DNA from: an uncultured Clostridia bacterium
Lineage (GTDB): Bacteria; Bacillota; Clostridia; TANB77; CAG-508
NCBI GenBank assembly: GCA_947626875.1
Contig: CANQTV010000004.1
Location: 3,506-67,505, forward strand
Direction of reading: 5' to 3'
Length of the DNA: 64,000 bases
Positions within the stretch are counted from its first letter, which is position 1. Each line of letters starts with the position of its first letter. The position numbers and the translations under genes were made by a program. The notes beneath the pieces are model-generated. The model saw nothing but the letters and a program-made list of their open reading frames with translations. It was not told the origin of the DNA and did not search any database. Below, piece after piece: positions 6,137 through 55,868 of the stretch.

Positions 6137-6268
6137 AACCGGGAATTGGGGGACGCCCTTTTTTTCCCTATGCTATTTTTCCCTCTTTGTAAAAAAATAA
6201 ATATTTTTATAATAATAAACAAAGAGGGAAAAATAGCATAGGGAAAAAAAGGGCGTCCCCAATTCCCG
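6137..6268. repeat. Palindromic intergenic repeat, copy A. Perfect hairpin of about 132 bp with arms GGGAATTGGGGGACGCCCTTTTTTTCCCTATGCTATTTTTCCCTCTTTGT and an AT-rich loop of about 30 nt.
   Basis: Read directly. It abuts the stop codon of ytfJ (6269) and lies upstream of the spoIIA promoter. Confidence 0.9.
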
Positions 6269-6868
6269 TTACATTTCATCTTCATTTGCTGTTTCATCAT
6301 ATTCAAATTCATAAGTAACTTCATTAGGTTTTTCTTCTGTTTTTCTTTCAACTTTTTTTACTGTTCTTTCTGCATGTTCTTTTGGTTGTTTTATCTCTTC
6401 TTCTTTCTTTCCCATTTTACGAATGATTTTTTCTGTTTCTTCTTTTTTGTTTTCAATACAGCGATTCATTGCATTATTTACTTTTTCAATTAAATCTGGA
6501 ATATAATCTAATAACTTGTCTATACTTGAAGAATGATTAACTGGAATTAATTTTACATTTTCTTTTGTAATAACTAAAAATGCAATTGGATTTATGCTTA
6601 CACCAGCACCACTCCCTCCACCAAATGGTAGACGATATTGAATCTCTTCTTCCTTATCTGCTTTTTTATATTCGTCAACTGTTTCTCCTTTAAATTCACT
6701 TCCTCCTGCTGCAAATCCAAATGATACCTTTGATATAGGAATGATGACAATATTATTAGATGTTTCAATTGGTTCTCCAATAATAGTATTTACATCAATC
6801 ATATCTTGAATGCTATTCATAGCTGTAGTCATAAGACCTTCTATTGGATGCTCGTTCATATTTTTCAA
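6269..6868 (-). CDS. ytfJ: Sporulation protein YtfJ/GerW family
   Basis: HPIEGLMTTAMNSIQDMIDVNTIIGEPI ... VSFGFAAGGSEF ... FGGGSGAGVSINPIAFLVI is typical of Spore_YtfJ. Confidence 0.7.
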   Translation of the reverse strand: MKNMNEHPIEGLMTTAMNSIQDMIDVNTIIGEPIETSNNIVIIPISKVSFGFAAGGSEFKGETVDEYKKADKEEEIQYRLPFGGGSGAGVSINPIAFLVITKENVKLIPVNHSSSIDKLLDYIPDLIEKVNNAMNRCIENKKEETEKIIRKMGKKEEEIKQPKEHAERTVKKVERKTEEKPNEVTYEFEYDETANEDEM

Positions 6869-7424
6869 CTCTCCTTTTCTTTTTTAATATACATATTGTG
6901 GTTATAATATGTATCATTTTTATTTTAAATATACCTTCCAACTGGAAATTGATTATATTCTTGTTTTTATAAATTGGTGTTACTTCAAAATTTTGTTTAT
7001 TATTTTTGTTTCTTGTTTTTTGAACTATGATTGCCAAAATGGTACTAATTATTGGAATTAAAAATGATGTTAATATTAGATTTTCTGTTCCTAATTCTAT
7101 TTTGAAATTTAATTGATTTATTTGAATTTTTATGTTCTTTATAATTTCTTTAAAATCTATATCATATTTTTCTTTCTGCATCTTTTCTTTTATTTTTTCT
7201 TTTATATGCTTTTTTTGATTTAATTTTTCAAATTTATTTTGTGTTAGTTTTAGTTTAAATATTGGAATTTTACTTAAAATATATAAATAAATTGAAATTT
7301 GATATTCTTGATTAATATGTGATTCATTATATTTCAAATTTTCCACTCTAATTTGTATATTTGTTGAAATAATTAGTAAATAAATTACTAATATTAAAAA
7401 AAATGTATAAAATAAAAATAGCAT
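6813..7424 (-). CDS. Membrane protein, probably DUF2953 (YtfI-like partner of ytfJ)
   Basis: Hydrophobic N-terminus and lysine-rich body. Synteny with ytfJ as in B. subtilis ytfI-ytfJ. It overlaps the next ORF's 5' end, so the ytfJ start may be at an internal Met. Confidence 0.4.
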   Translation of the reverse strand: MLFLFYTFFLILVIYLLIISTNIQIRVENLKYNESHINQEYQISIYLYILSKIPIFKLKLTQNKFEKLNQKKHIKEKIKEKMQKEKYDIDFKEIIKNIKIQINQLNFKIELGTENLILTSFLIPIISTILAIIVQKTRNKNNKQNFEVTPIYKNKNIINFQLEGIFKIKMIHIITTICILKKKRRVEKYERASNRRSYDYSYE

Positions 7425-7613
7425 ATTTTCGCCTTCTTTTTTATTTTTGTTATTTTATACATAGTTTTTCCAATTTTGGAAATTTTAAACATAAATTATT
7501 AAATATGTTTTTCAAAAAAATTTTCAATTTTATTTACTTTTTTTGTCAAATCATATACAATAAGAATATAAAATTTAAAAATGGGAAACTACTAAGAAAG
7601 CGGAGGAAAACTA

Positions 7614-10001
7614 ATGAAAAATAAAAATGAATTATCGTACAAAGATTTAAAATTAACCTGTGATGAAAGTCTTTTTAATTTTGATACAACTCAGGAAATT
7701 GAGGATATCCATACAGGTATTGGTCAGCAACGTGGTATTAAAGCTTTAGAATTTGGTCTTCAGGTTGATGTGAAGGGTTATAACTTATATTTAGAAGGTC
7801 CAAATGGCGTAGGAAAAACAATGTATACCAAAAATTACTTAGACAAAATATCTAAAAAACAAAAAGTTCCAAATGATTGGTGCTATATTTATAATTTTAA
7901 TAATCCAAATAATCCTATCTCCGTTTCTTTACCTGCTGGACAAGGTAAAGAATTTAGAGATAATATGGATGGGTTTATTAAAGAAATAAAAAAAGATATA
8001 AAAAAGACATTTAATGCAGATGATTTTGAAAAAGAAAAGGCTATGATAAAACAAGAATTTGAAGAAAAACGTGCTGCTCTTCTTGAAAAATTAAATAGAG
8101 ATGCATTAAAATATAATTTTCAAGTAAAAGCTTCACAAAATGGTATTTATATGATGCCTGTTATAGATGGTAAAGCTATCGAAGAACAGGAATTTGATAA
8201 ATTAGATGAAGCCGTAAAACAAGAATATGAAAACAAATCTGCTATTGTGCAAGAACAAATTATGAATGCAATTAGTCAAATTAAGCAAATTGAACGTCAA
8301 GCTGATAAAAAAATTTCAGAATGGCAATCTAATATTGCTCTTTTAACAGTTAGTGCTCACATTAATTTTTTAAAGTCAAAATATAAGAGAAATAAAAAAA
8401 TAAATAACTTTCTAAATGATGTAAAACAAGATGTTTTAAAAAATGTTTCTTATTTTTTAGAAGAAGACAAAATTTCTCAAAATCAAGCGATAAACCCGGC
8501 TGCTAAAAAACCAGATCCTTCTTTGAATTATCGTGTTAATTTATTTATTGATAATTCAAATTTAGATGGCAGTCCCGTTATTATGGATTCAAATTATTCT
8601 TATCATAATATTTTTGGTTCTCTAGAATATGAAAATTATTATGGTGCTTTAAAAACAGATTTTACTATGTTAAAACCTGGTCTACTACATCAAGCAAATG
8701 GTGGTTACATCATATTTCAAGCTAAAGATTTGTTATCTAGCCCTACTTGCTATGAAGCTTTAAAAAAGGCATTGCGTGTTAAAGAATTAGGAATTGAAGG
8801 TTTACCAGAACAGCGTTCTTCTATGGTAATGATTTCTTTACAGCCTGAACCAATTCCTTTAGATTTAAAAGTAATTTTGATTGGAAATAGCTATATTTAT
8901 CAGACATTATTAGCAATGGATTCTGATTTTAAACAATTATTTAAAATTAAAGTAGAATTTGAGGATGATGCTCCTTTAAATGCTGAAAATGTTAATAAAT
9001 TGGCTAGAATTATACATGGTTTTTGTGAAAAAAATCAACTTGCTCATTTAGATAAAAGTGCTATGGCAAAACTTGTTGAATATTCTTCAAAAATGGCTGG
9101 TAGTCACAGCAAAATTTCAACTCGTTTTGATGATTTGATTGAAATTGTTGGAGAGGCTGCTACTTGGGCAAAAATTGAAAAGTCTAAGGTCGTCACAGCA
9201 AAATATATGGATATGGCATTAAAAGAACAAATAAATCGTGTTAAAAAATATGATTCAAAATATATTGAGATGATTAAAAATGAGTCATTATTAATTGATA
9301 CTTCTGGTTTTAAAGTAGGAACTTTAAATGGTTTGACTGTTATGACAATTGGTGATTATACTTTTGGAAAACCTGCTAAAATTACAGTAAATACTTATAC
9401 TGGAAAAAATGGTGTTGTTAATATTGAAAGAGAAGTTGAACTTTCTGGTTCTTCTCACTCAAAAGGTGTTTTGATTTTAACAGGTTATTTGGGAGAAATG
9501 TTTGCTCAAGATATTCCTCTTTGCTTAACTGCTAGTATTTGTTTTGAGCAATTATATAATGGTGTAGATGGTGATAGTGCTTCTAGTACAGAGCTATATG
9601 GGTTACTTTCTAGCCTTTCTGGAATCCCTATTAATCAAGCAATTGCTGTTACTGGTTCTGTGAATCAAAAAGGACAAATTCAGCCAATTGGTGGTGTTAA
9701 TGAAAAAATTGAAGGTTATTTCCAGATTTGTAAAATGAGAGGCTTAGATGGTTCACATGGTGTTATGATACCAATTCAAAATGTTGATAATTTACAACTT
9801 TGTGATGAAGTTTTGGAAGCTGTAAAAAATAAACAATTTCATATTTATTCTATTTCAACAATTGAAGAAGGAATTGAAATTTTAACAGGCGTTCCTGCTG
9901 GTAAAAGAGATTCTTCTGGTCATTTCCCTGCTGGTACTATCAATGACCTTGTTTATCAAAAATTAAAGAAATATGCAAATATTGTTTATGGTAAAAAATA
10001 A
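7614..10001 (+). CDS. Lon-like ATP-dependent protease (AAA+ ATPase plus C-terminal S16 Lon proteolytic domain; COG1067/LonC type)
   Basis: Walker A LEGPNGVGKTMY. C-terminal DGDSASSTELYGLLSSLSG...VTGSVNQKGQIQPIGGVNEKIEG with the Ser-Lys dyad context. Confidence 0.7.
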   Translation: MKNKNELSYKDLKLTCDESLFNFDTTQEIEDIHTGIGQQRGIKALEFGLQVDVKGYNLYLEGPNGVGKTMYTKNYLDKISKKQKVPNDWCYIYNFNNPNNPISVSLPAGQGKEFRDNMDGFIKEIKKDIKKTFNADDFEKEKAMIKQEFEEKRAALLEKLNRDALKYNFQVKASQNGIYMMPVIDGKAIEEQEFDKLDEAVKQEYENKSAIVQEQIMNAISQIKQIERQADKKISEWQSNIALLTVSAHINFLKSKYKRNKKINNFLNDVKQDVLKNVSYFLEEDKISQNQAINPAAKKPDPSLNYRVNLFIDNSNLDGSPVIMDSNYSYHNIFGSLEYENYYGALKTDFTMLKPGLLHQANGGYIIFQAKDLLSSPTCYEALKKALRVKELGIEGLPEQRSSMVMISLQPEPIPLDLKVILIGNSYIYQTLLAMDSDFKQLFKIKVEFEDDAPLNAENVNKLARIIHGFCEKNQLAHLDKSAMAKLVEYSSKMAGSHSKISTRFDDLIEIVGEAATWAKIEKSKVVTAKYMDMALKEQINRVKKYDSKYIEMIKNESLLIDTSGFKVGTLNGLTVMTIGDYTFGKPAKITVNTYTGKNGVVNIEREVELSGSSHSKGVLILTGYLGEMFAQDIPLCLTASICFEQLYNGVDGDSASSTELYGLLSSLSGIPINQAIAVTGSVNQKGQIQPIGGVNEKIEGYFQICKMRGLDGSHGVMIPIQNVDNLQLCDEVLEAVKNKQFHIYSISTIEEGIEILTGVPAGKRDSSGHFPAGTINDLVYQKLKKYANIVYGKK

Positions 10002-10007
10002 AATTTA

Positions 10008-55574: not shown

Positions 55575-55601
55575 TTTAGCACTCTATTTGTTTGACTGCT
55601 A
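55575..55601. promoter_or_regulatory. CIRCE operator (HrcA binding site) TTAGCACTC-N9-GACTGCTAA upstream of groES
   Basis: Matches consensus TTAGCACTC-N9-GAGTGCTAA with one mismatch. Confidence 0.75.
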
Positions 55602-55604
55602 ATA

Positions 55605-55645
55605 ATTTATACCCTATTATCAAAATTGTCAATACCTTTTTTGTA
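55605..55645 (-). promoter_or_regulatory. Sigma-A promoter for groESL (TTGACA ... TATAAAT) immediately upstream of CIRCE
   Basis: Minus-strand GGTATTGACAATTTTGATAATAGGGTATAAATTATTAG. Confidence 0.45.
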
Positions 55646-55726
55646 TTTTTCACATAATTTTCACAATTCTTCCAAAATTATATCGTTTTATTATATTCAA
55701 TACCCTTAAAAAATATAACCGGGAAG

Positions 55727-55868
55727 GGGGGACGCCCTTTTTTTCCCTATGCGATTTTTCCCTCTTGGGGAATTGGGGACGCCCATAGGGAAAAAAAGGG
55801 CGTCCCCTCTTCCCGATTAGGGAAAAAAAGGGCGTCCCCAGTTCCCCAAGGGCGTCCCCGATTCCCGG
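55727..55868. repeat. Complex cluster of five repeat units in both orientations, without the AT-rich loop (copy G), between the pyrG stop and the groESL promoter
   Basis: Read directly. GGGGACGCCC / GGGCGTCCCC cores at 55737, 55782, 55800, 55830, 55850. Confidence 0.85.

Follow-up and report, generated by a model that had tools for sequence, protein, structure and literature searches.

The stretch of DNA considered here, 64,000 nucleotides from an uncultured Clostridia bacterium (hereafter the window), carries at seven places a short repeat able to fold into a hairpin, in three cases squeezed between the stop codons of two genes. What are these repeats, and which protein, if any, put them there? 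Our analysis argues that they probably form a family similar to the repetitive extragenic palindromic (REP) sequences and their REPIN doublets, and that their protein partner is a single, chromosomally fixed gene for a Y1 (HUH) protein of the REP-associated tyrosine transposase (RAYT) or TIRYT type. In the best reading of these sequences, the family would be mobilized, now or in the past, by P0004, the Y1 protein described below.

A family of hairpin repeats at seven sites

We searched the window with the 22-mer GGGGACGCCCTTTTTTTCCCTA, allowing up to three mismatches, and obtained 16 matches against none in 100 dinucleotide-preserving shuffles. The 10-nt core GGGGACGCCC (at most one mismatch) occurs 18 times, and every occurrence falls inside one of seven loci, here called A to G. 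The repeat family that the initial annotation of the window had placed at these seven sites is thus confirmed. The window is densely coding, and because its G+C content is 25-32% across 2-kb windows, the G+C-rich repeat blocks stand out. The unit is about 32 nt long and reads (AAC)CGGGAA-(TT/GA/TC/GG)-GGGGACGCCC-TTTTTTT-CCCTA. It forms a hairpin with a GGGAA(A)/(T)TTCCC stem and GGGGACGCCC at the apex (-12.4 to -12.7 kcal/mol for single units of the window species) and is followed, on one side, by one or two TTTCCCTA sub-repeats at 15-nt spacing. Two lone TTTCCCTA matches near gene ends (2526 and 61274), without an adjacent core, are possibly chance matches or decayed remnants. At gathering thresholds, Rfam gave nothing at the repeats anywhere in the window. 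The seven copies are as follows, with a strand for the two that have one.

Copy A: 6137-6268, inverted doublet (REPIN-like); arms 6141-6190 and 6219-6268; spacer 6191-6218
Copy B: 10005-10208, direct 32-nt units 10005-10035, 10037-10067 and 10069-10099; inner arm to 10118; 27-nt spacer 10119-10145; right arm 10146-10198; partial extra core 10196-10208
Copy C: 17744-17778, plus strand, solo unit
Copy D: 19420-19585, direct units 19423-19453 and 19455-19485; inner arm to 19504; spacer 19505-19532; right arm 19533-19585
Copy E: 33466-33593, inverted doublet; 50-nt arms, 98% complementary; spacer 33516-33543
Copy F: 40848-40914, minus strand, single arm; unit 40884-40914, then two TAGGGAA sub-repeats (40854 and 40869) at 15-nt spacing
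Copy G: 55717-55868, five cores, two on the plus strand (55728, 55775) and three on the minus strand (55798, 55830, 55850); no AT spacer

In four of the copies (A, B, D and E), two inverted arms form a doublet of about 130 bp. Each arm, of about 50 nt, consists of a unit plus TGCTATTTTTCCCTCTTTGT, and the two arms are 91-98% complementary according to a repeat finder and to our reading of the copies (94% by the repeat finder for the 49-nt arms of copy A). The arms enclose the spacer AAAAAAATAAATATTTTTATAATAATAA, which is 28 nt long, AT-rich and non-palindromic. This spacer is identical in A, D and E and lacks one nucleotide in B, and all four doublets have it in the same orientation. The full copies had been described as perfect palindromes; their arms are palindromic, but only nearly perfectly so, and the spacer between them is not. 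The identical spacer, together with arms matched at 91-98% in A, B, D and E, points to copying and not to independent origin, and the doublet of about 130 bp appears to be the form copied most recently in the window species. Folded as RNA, the doublets reach about -90 kcal/mol on either strand, with z around -15 (-90.4 kcal/mol and z = -15.4 for copy A).

The extra direct units of B and D follow each other at an exact 32-nt period with nothing between them; there are two in B and one in D, fewer than the two to three first counted. Copies C and F had been taken for solo units, which is true of C, whereas F is a solo unit plus two TAGGGAA sub-repeats, the same layout as in the arms that flank the Y1 gene described below. 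The description of G as a loop-less cluster of five units stands, since it contains five cores and no AT spacer.

Two other kinds of element were rejected. The units are not those of a CRISPR array, as had rightly been said at the outset, because the direct units abut at a 32-nt period without spacers and most copies are inverted. They are not integron attC sites either, for they lie between housekeeping genes in convergent orientation and R''/R' core sites are absent.

The doublets could also be seen as a classical miniature inverted-repeat transposable element (MITE), that is, a deletion derivative of an insertion sequence (IS) with a DDE transposase, bounded by terminal inverted repeats of about 50 bp and mobilized in trans. 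In keeping with this idea, the doublets are intergenic and about 130 bp long, with long terminal inverted repeats around a centre that is AT-rich and non-coding, and the TTTCCCTA sub-repeats, spaced by 15 nt, recall the arrays of transposase-binding sites in some IS ends. We nevertheless regard it as extremely improbable. No target-site duplication was found when the flanks of A, B, D and E were examined, as expected for Y1 elements; directly outside the element, the flanks seen so far carry (T/G/A)AA. Solo units and tandem 32-nt arrays are common, and no parent element was present in the sequence searched. Nor did any non-Y1 transposase turn up in the window, in roughly 300 kb of related sequence (L001 to L040, see the next section) or in the contig of the Y1 gene (L131), within a search limited to Y1 queries and gene lists. 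Finally, each of the supposed inverted repeats is itself a hairpin whose stem covaries between lineages, unlike the ends of DDE elements.

The repeats in related genomes

An exact-match scan, with one genome per species, returned 40 blocks that carry the repeat (L001 to L040). They come from uncultured Clostridia metagenome-assembled genomes (MAGs), mainly 'Clostridiaceae bacterium S24_Bin1' and 'Clostridium sp. 26_22'. In coding regions, the window shares 70-84% nucleotide identity with these MAGs and thus represents a related species. The unit of the related genomes, TAGGGAAAtaaa-GGGGACGCCC-TTTTTTTCCCTA, makes a cleaner hairpin of 34 nt (-19.5 kcal/mol and z -4.4 for that of S24_Bin1), usually followed by one to three N7-TTTCCCTA sub-repeats. 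Units of S24_Bin1 often start with (G/C/A)TAGGGAAA, which contains TAG but no clear GTAG tag. In that species, inverted pairs enclose nothing, up to 300 nt of unique sequence or a whole gene, and they have only their terminal 30 nt or so in common. As the interiors of the pairs are unique, S24_Bin1 holds no conserved MITE body. Pairs placed around a whole small gene, as at the Y1 gene, are found in S24_Bin1 at L016 (6973-7897) and at L028 (873-1481).

Occupancy of orthologous sites turns over between species. The gap between disA and the PPIase gene measures 34 nt and is empty in the window, and in S24_Bin1 (L031) it measures about 250 nt and holds an inverted pair. The gap between spoIVA and rlmN is filled in Clostridium sp. 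26_22 (L032) and carries a canonical terminator in the window. Site A is occupied in both species compared, by differently built palindromes. Between strains, no insertion polymorphism was seen: one further locus (L041) is 100% identical to the window, and three others (L132 to L134) are 99.98% identical to L131, with no indels.

We also observed that two of the blocks, L020 and L039, binned respectively as Clostridiaceae S24_Bin1 and Lachnospiraceae S14_Bin3, have the same sequence around the units in mirror orientation, which suggests one organism or a shared contig under two bin names.

A Y1 gene bracketed by inverted units

The initial annotation had proposed, among other possibilities, the spread of a non-autonomous mobile element, and had advised looking for a Y1 or RAYT-like gene elsewhere in the genome. 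Such a gene was found on another contig of the same assembly, bracketed by inverted units, and its flanking units support that proposal.

The first sign of it came from a tblastn search with an E. coli RayT sequence, which gave one weak match (E = 0.005) in S24_Bin1, directly downstream of a unit; tblastn with an IS200 TnpA sequence found nothing. The corresponding open reading frame (ORF) of S24_Bin1 scores 38.9 bits with Pfam Y1_Tnp (cut-off 23), and its top NCBIfam family is 'REP-associated tyrosine transposase'. The full-length Y1 proteins have about 255 residues. P0004, a Y1/HUH protein of 255 aa that is 54% identical to the S24_Bin1 protein, is encoded on contig NODE_401 of ENA assembly ERZ27249462. 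Another contig of this assembly, NODE_965, is 100% identical to 15.9 kb of the window (13549-29418). The shared assembly, the similar coverage of the two contigs (5.4x for NODE_401 and 5.8x for NODE_965) and the 71-82% identity of NODE_401 to S24_Bin1, which is the same divergence as that of the window, together suggest that NODE_401 belongs to the window's genome.

The neighbourhood of the Y1 gene is identical in three species and four samples, in the order signal peptidase, holB, PSP1, ferredoxin, Y1 and LPG synthase. In all three species (L048/L131, L042 and L045), the Y1 gene stands between inverted units with their sub-repeats turned towards it, and the upstream flanking unit overlaps the ferredoxin stop codon. 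Our Y1 search of about 385 kb (the window, L001 to L040 and L131) gave one match. The 20.7-kb contig around the gene (L131) contains three cores, two of which are the Y1 flanks. With only three cores on this second contig, the earlier figure of hundreds of copies per genome is an extrapolation.

The sequence of the protein places it close to the RAYTs. P0004 scores 37 bits with Pfam Y1_Tnp (cut-off 23). With the NCBIfam models, REP_Tyr_transpos is the best family by far at 61-67 bits (67 for P0004), under its curated cut-off of 80, and the IS200 model gives at most 19 bits (19 for P0004). The residues N59-H60-x-H62 (HUH), Y120 and N124-P125 (Y---NP) are invariant in 40 homologues. A 40-sequence profile matches E. 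coli TnpA-REP (PDB 4er8) with E = 1.3e-6, the HUH and Y---NP motifs being aligned. The search of PDB sequences with P0004 alone was uninformative, 4er8 coming at E = 0.16 below two spurious spike-protein matches. The best PDB match of the AlphaFold model (pLDDT 87.9) is again 4er8 (E = 2e-7, TM 0.71), with the TnpA proteins of ISDra2 and IS608 next.

P0004 is longer than 4er8 (255 aa vs 165 aa), with an extra C-terminal region of about 65-100 aa. Residues 190-254 are helical in the model (pLDDT about 80-89), and the similarity of this region to helix-turn-helix (HTH) domains is sub-threshold (Pfam HTH_28, HTH_23, HTH_3 and HTH_37, E = 0.008-0.06). A close relative bears in IMG the name 'REP element-mobilizing transposase RayT', and the Y1 family comprises 5,259 cluster representatives at E <=1e-10.

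Covarying hairpins flank the Y1 family

If the repeats belong with the Y1 gene, do comparable hairpins accompany its homologues? We fetched 80 metagenome loci with homologues 33-52% identical and analyzed 52 loci, namely the 49 of these with usable flanks together with L042, L045 and L048. A hairpin carrying GGGAC(G/A) lies upstream of the gene on the coding strand at 40 of the 52 loci and downstream on the opposite strand at 43, and 34 loci have both. The orientation of these hairpins is strongly biased, with counts of 49:2 upstream and 55:5 downstream. Their stems vary by lineage (TGGAAAA, ATGTCA, TGAACTTT, CGGTCAG, GGGATTT, GGGAA and others), and a conserved GGGGAC opens the loop. In several of the homologue loci extra copies lie away from the gene, so that dispersal is not unique to the lineage of the window.

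For the analysis of covariation we took all 126 distinct GGGGAC[AG] 27-mers of these loci, with no hairpin filter. When a 7-bp stem is set around a 13-nt loop, 70.4% of the cells are paired vs 42.7% in shuffles, and none of 500 shuffles reached 70.4%. Because the register was chosen post hoc and the sequences are related, this shuffle control is not to be read as a probability. The control in which the partner was slid is nevertheless clear, with pairing of at most 50%. All seven stem pairs covary, changing on both sides, and G-U pairs are rare. Stems made nearly entirely of Watson-Crick pairs point to a constraint acting on both DNA strands, and stem covariation around a conserved loop points to a folded single strand; these two properties are taken up again below.

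Placement of the repeats

The genes that flank the repeats are ordinary chromosomal genes, including spoIIAA/AB/sigF, ytfJ, the gene of a LonC-like protease, rlmN, tyrS, hisS, pyrG, groES/EL, spoIVA and disA, and are those of a spore-forming member of the Clostridia. Within the window, all units but one are intergenic and six of the seven sites touch the 3' end of a gene. Of its 60 gaps between genes, elements occupy 3/9 of the convergent ones, 3/42 of the co-directional ones and 1/9 of the divergent ones.

Full copies had been said to fill their gaps from stop codon to stop codon. This is true of B, D and E, each of which makes up a whole convergent gap and comes within 0-3 nt of both stops: B extends from the lonC-like stop (10001) to the stop of a DUF4363 gene (10209), D from the tyrS stop (19418) to the stop of a DUF5665 gene (19585), and E lies between stops 33464 and 33593. 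It is not true of A: on the right this copy directly adjoins the stop codon of the ytfJ-like gene (6269-6859, minus strand), but on the left it looks onto the spoIIAA promoter region, with the spoIIAA start 118 nt away. Copy G is bounded by the pyrG stop (55869) on one side and by the groES promoter/CIRCE region on the other. The unit of copy F is the one that is coding: it encodes the last 11 codons (KGIGDALFFPS) of hisS (40879-42201, minus strand), with the TAA stop (40879-40881) just beyond its inner end. The HGTP_anticodon domain of HisRS ends at residue 428 of 440, before this tail.

Copy C (-12.4 kcal/mol) is found in a divergent 5' region, with its outer (GGGAA) side 16 nt ahead of the start codon of rlmN (17727, minus strand). 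A strong sigma-70-type promoter match lies nearby (17813-17785, minus strand; 11/12, extended -10; a consensus match only). From this predicted promoter, transcription of rlmN would begin where the inner side of unit C ends, and the unit would then stand at the 5' end of the leader. Nearly all copies of the related genomes are intergenic too, 1-45 nt past a stop codon or 20-47 nt ahead of a start codon, and at least 9 of their solo units adjoin ribosome-binding sites in 5' leaders. Units are thus found in 5' leaders as well, at copy C and in many copies of the related genomes. The suggested mechanism targeting gene ends is not supported; the flush ends may reflect selection in a compact genome.

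Two sets of putative regulatory motifs were noticed beside copies of the repeat. Paired TGTCGAA/TTCGACA motifs, which resemble Spo0A boxes, lie at 6085-6125 between spoIIAA and copy A; they are conserved in the related species (L004, about 2560-2600), where the rest of the spacer is not. Upstream of groES, near copy G, the motif TTAGCACTC-N9-GACTGCTAA (55575-55602) resembles, by eye, the CIRCE/HrcA operator with one mismatch in its right half.

Could the repeats be, above all, RNA 3'-end elements selected by the host, that is, bidirectional terminators or exonuclease blocks, perhaps homogenized by gene conversion, with the neighbouring Y1 gene being incidental? Copies B, D and E are the sole sequence between convergent stops, and any 3'-end formation of six genes must use them. 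Element-free convergent gaps of the window are 27-49 nt long, a sixth measuring 203 nt, and the short ones carry ordinary terminator hairpins, such as the normal bidirectional terminator 15626-15654 in the gap 15617-15663. The stability of the doublets on either strand and the enrichment of elements in convergent gaps over co-directional ones also speak for such a role. Di Nocera et al. (2013, PMC3733652) describe the REPs of other bacteria as located mainly downstream of genes and as acting at the level of RNA.

On the other hand, no U-tract follows the doublet stem. The run of seven T lies inside the unit stem, the doublet stem ends in GGTT or in coding sequence, and a terminator consensus scan flags, among the units, just two single ones (10070-10096 and 6148-6160), weakly. 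The unit is thus a poor canonical intrinsic terminator, and for doublets lacking a U-tract after the stem, exonuclease protection is at least as likely as termination. A terminator has no need of an identical, non-palindromic spacer of 28 nt in four copies, nor does this explanation account for units next to ribosome-binding sites in 5' leaders, for stems with so few G-U pairs, or for the GGGGAC-loop hairpins that flank Y1 homologues on dozens of unrelated contigs. As an account of what the repeats are, we therefore find it unlikely. It concerns function, however, and is compatible with an origin driven by a Y1 enzyme; a role of the repeats as terminators or mRNA stabilizers at 3' ends, as first suggested for the window, is plausible.

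A further regularity concerns polarity. Among 31 solo units from the window and the related loci, 27 turn their GGGAA side towards the nearest gene in an automatic count (p = 3e-5), with the T7-CCCTA/sub-repeat side turned to the longer stretch between genes. Each of the four others either overlaps the 3' end of an ORF or abuts a 56-aa gene missed by our crude gene caller, and the polarity is effectively 31/31.

This polarity is one of several features that would suit immobile, double-stranded binding sites for a chromosomal protein, placed at the boundaries of transcription units and bound, for example, by the C-terminal helical/HTH-like domain of the Y1 protein or by a nucleoid protein. Species that share only 70-84% identity in their coding DNA have kept the core GGGGACGCCC and the TTTCCCTA sub-repeats, the sub-repeats follow a regular 15-nt spacing, and an extra C-terminal helical domain, weakly similar to HTH domains, is conserved throughout the Y1 family. 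Immobile sites would hardly agree with the turnover of occupancy at orthologous positions, nor with near-identical doublets within one genome, which indicate copying. The stem covariation and the conserved loop argue for a folded single strand and not for a duplex site, and we judge this explanation very unlikely.

A proposed origin of the repeats

We come back to the reading that we prefer, a REP/REPIN-like family served by the Y1 gene. The following scheme is built by analogy with TnpA-REP and with the TnpA of IS200/IS605 elements, together with the fold matches of P0004, and its catalysis, mobility and RNA effects are inferred. The unit would fold on single-stranded DNA, for example at replication forks. 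The Y1 enzyme could then read the lineage-specific stem together with the conserved GGGGAC(G) that opens the loop of about 13 nt, and would cut beside the hairpin by means of its putative catalytic residue Y120, with the HUH motif at H60/H62. The cut strand would be rejoined elsewhere without leaving a target-site duplication, and repeated joining or slippage might give the tandem 32-nt units and the clusters. Copies would persist where they are harmless, just past stop codons or just ahead of ribosome-binding sites. Once transcribed, they would place stable hairpins in 3' untranslated regions and in some 5' leaders. An outer stem of the S24 type, with TAG and TAA in two frames, would moreover close any ORF clipped by an insertion.

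Several points weigh against this scheme. The assignment of the Y1 contig to the window's genome derives from the shared assembly, the coverage and the divergence, and the single copy of the Y1 gene holds for the 385 kb or so that were searched. If about 10% of the gaps carry a unit, the chance that two units flank one given gene is around 1%, which is low but not zero, and the three species do not count as independent, because the arrangement around the Y1 gene was inherited. The arms that flank this gene match the amplified doublets for about 30 nt only and then diverge. The classical GTAG tag of REPs is absent, with no GTAG/CGTC at the foot of the hairpin, as the units of the window start with (AACC)GGGAA or AAGGGAA. 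The sub-cut-off REP_Tyr_transpos score given above belongs here too. Above all, the fixed polarity of the solo units is not predicted by simple transposition and is the main point that the model leaves unexplained.

Beyond its origin, the family has practical consequences. The repeats fill several gaps between genes and overlap at least two gene 3' ends, those of hisS in the window and of the ferredoxin gene beside the Y1 gene. Gene calling and terminator prediction in these low-GC MAGs, as well as their assembly, will therefore be affected.

Other features of the window

The sole Rfam match at gathering thresholds in the whole window is a c-di-GMP-I riboswitch aptamer (38398-38484, plus strand; RF01051, 81.6 bits, E = 1.7e-14), directly upstream of the ORF 38494-39117. 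No tRNA or tmRNA gene was found in the window.

A second small repeat of 48 nt is present in two inverted copies, 92% identical, at 12556-12603 and 55221-55268. One copy lies just upstream of the gene 11867-12538 (minus strand) and the other in the groES-groEL spacer, in opposite orientations relative to the downstream genes. This repeat has no Rfam match at E <=1 and no further copy in any fetched locus.

Tandem coding repeats occupy 481-995 in the ORF of a large protein that runs off the window start (1-2390, minus strand); their periods are 18 and 39 nt, with about 20 copies and 64-95% identity. A direct repeat of 236 nt (36103-36338 and 37718-37953, 80% identity) probably reflects a tandem gene duplication, its two copies lying in neighbouring ORFs of the minus strand (34917-36476 and 36466-37884/38097).

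Several conserved genes appear to be split into adjacent ORFs, at 22757-23663 and 24428-27050 in the window and at 18803-20055 in L131. SRP54-type GTPase domains and adenylosuccinate synthetase are each in two pieces, and a P-type ATPase is divided between two ORFs that overlap. These splits could be frameshift errors in an assembly of about 5x coverage or real pseudogenes.

Comparison with known systems

Pneumococcal BOX and the ERIC/IRU elements are modular intergenic repeats with variable tandem units and long stem-loops, and are co-transcribed with their neighbours. The present family resembles them in being modular and intergenic, with tandem internal units and long stem-loops. It differs by the lack of any sequence relationship and by the candidate for a cognate Y1 gene found here; neither BOX nor ERIC is known to have a dedicated Y1 gene flanked by the same modules.

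A parallel can also be drawn with the IS200/IS605 elements and their miniature derivatives (PATEs), in which a protein of Y1/HUH fold recognizes hairpin ends on single-stranded DNA and no target-site duplications are made. The fold of P0004 (with IS608 and ISDra2 TnpA next after 4er8) and the lack of target-site duplications recall these elements. The ends of IS200/IS605 elements are not inverted repeats of each other, and these elements are multi-copy and horizontally mobile. P0004, in contrast, scores 19 bits with the IS200 model against 67 with the REP-associated one, and its gene keeps a conserved chromosomal neighbourhood in three species.

The likeness is closer to the REP/REPIN-RAYT systems, such as E. 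coli TnpA-REP and the REPINs of P. fluorescens. Both have short extragenic hairpins, which in the window touch a gene 3' end at most sites, as well as inverted doublets that seem to be what is copied, clusters resembling BIMEs, and a Y1/HUH gene with Y---NP in fixed synteny and with inverted flanking units; 4er8 is moreover the top match of P0004. Several differences are worth noting. The hairpin foot bears no GTAG/CGTC tag, the conserved determinant being in the loop (GGGGAC) and not in a 5' guide tetranucleotide. P0004 has an extra C-terminal domain and remains below the NCBIfam cut-off for REP_Tyr_transpos. The host is a low-GC member of the Clostridia, and the arms add TTTCCCTA sub-repeats. 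REP/REPIN-RAYT systems have been studied almost entirely in Proteobacteria; here a case from gut Clostridia is tied to abundant hairpin repeats.

By motif and protein layout, the system fits the TIRYT/TIRtron class, which probably corresponds to RAYT group 1 and to subclass 2.1 of the Y1 transposases. TIRYT genes are RAYT-like and flanked by inverted repeats that share GGGGWSAS, and some repeat families of this type have been amplified to moderate abundance, their members occurring singly, as dimers or in clusters (Di Nocera et al. 2013, PMC3733652). According to Quentin et al. (2018, PMC6006769), TIRYT probably corresponds to TnpA-Y1 subclass 2.1, made of long proteins with a C-terminal domain similar to Bac_DnaA_C, HTH_23 or HTH_28; 291 of 292 RAYT group 1 sequences map to this subclass, and no REP-like sequences were found near its genes. 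Bertels et al. (2017, PMC5581495) found only RAYT groups 2 and 3 to be associated with REPs, with group 1, also present in Clostridia, having flanking 16-mers that occur about 12 times genome-wide.

Our data agree with these descriptions in several respects. P0004 is RAYT-like, longer than the classical RAYTs and endowed with an extra C-terminal region that is helical and possibly HTH-like. Its gene lies between inverted repeats with a GGGG-A-C-(A/G)-(C/G) motif, and copies of these flanking repeats are dispersed as singles, dimers and clusters. The host belongs to the Clostridia, in which group 1 also occurs. The core of the window species, GGGGACGC/T, matches GGGGWSAS at 7/8 positions, and those of the homologues are GGGGACAC, a full match, or GGGGACGG/T. 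Repeats of this kind, associated with TIRYT/RAYT and flanking Y1 genes, are thus already known. What goes beyond the published descriptions is the hairpin nature and the covariation of the 'inverted repeats', their high copy density and the Clostridia host. Published as 'TIRs rather than typical secondary structures' (terminal inverted repeats), they are here hairpins, each with a covarying 7-bp stem and a GGGGAC loop, and 18 cores are found in 64 kb against the 12 or so genome-wide 16-mers reported for group 1.

One may wonder how far this extends. A rather doubtful hypothesis would be that the GGGGAC-loop hairpin is the general partner of the largest RAYT class (group 1/subclass 2.1/TIRYT) across the Firmicutes, and that this lineage of Clostridia has additionally co-opted it as a boundary element of fixed polarity, after stops and before ribosome-binding sites. 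If the boundary reading were true, many mRNAs would carry matching 5' and 3' hairpins controlling their stability or translation. For the enzymes of RAYT group 1 and subclass 2.1 themselves, the covarying stem and its GGGGAC loop provide a concrete and testable model of recognition.

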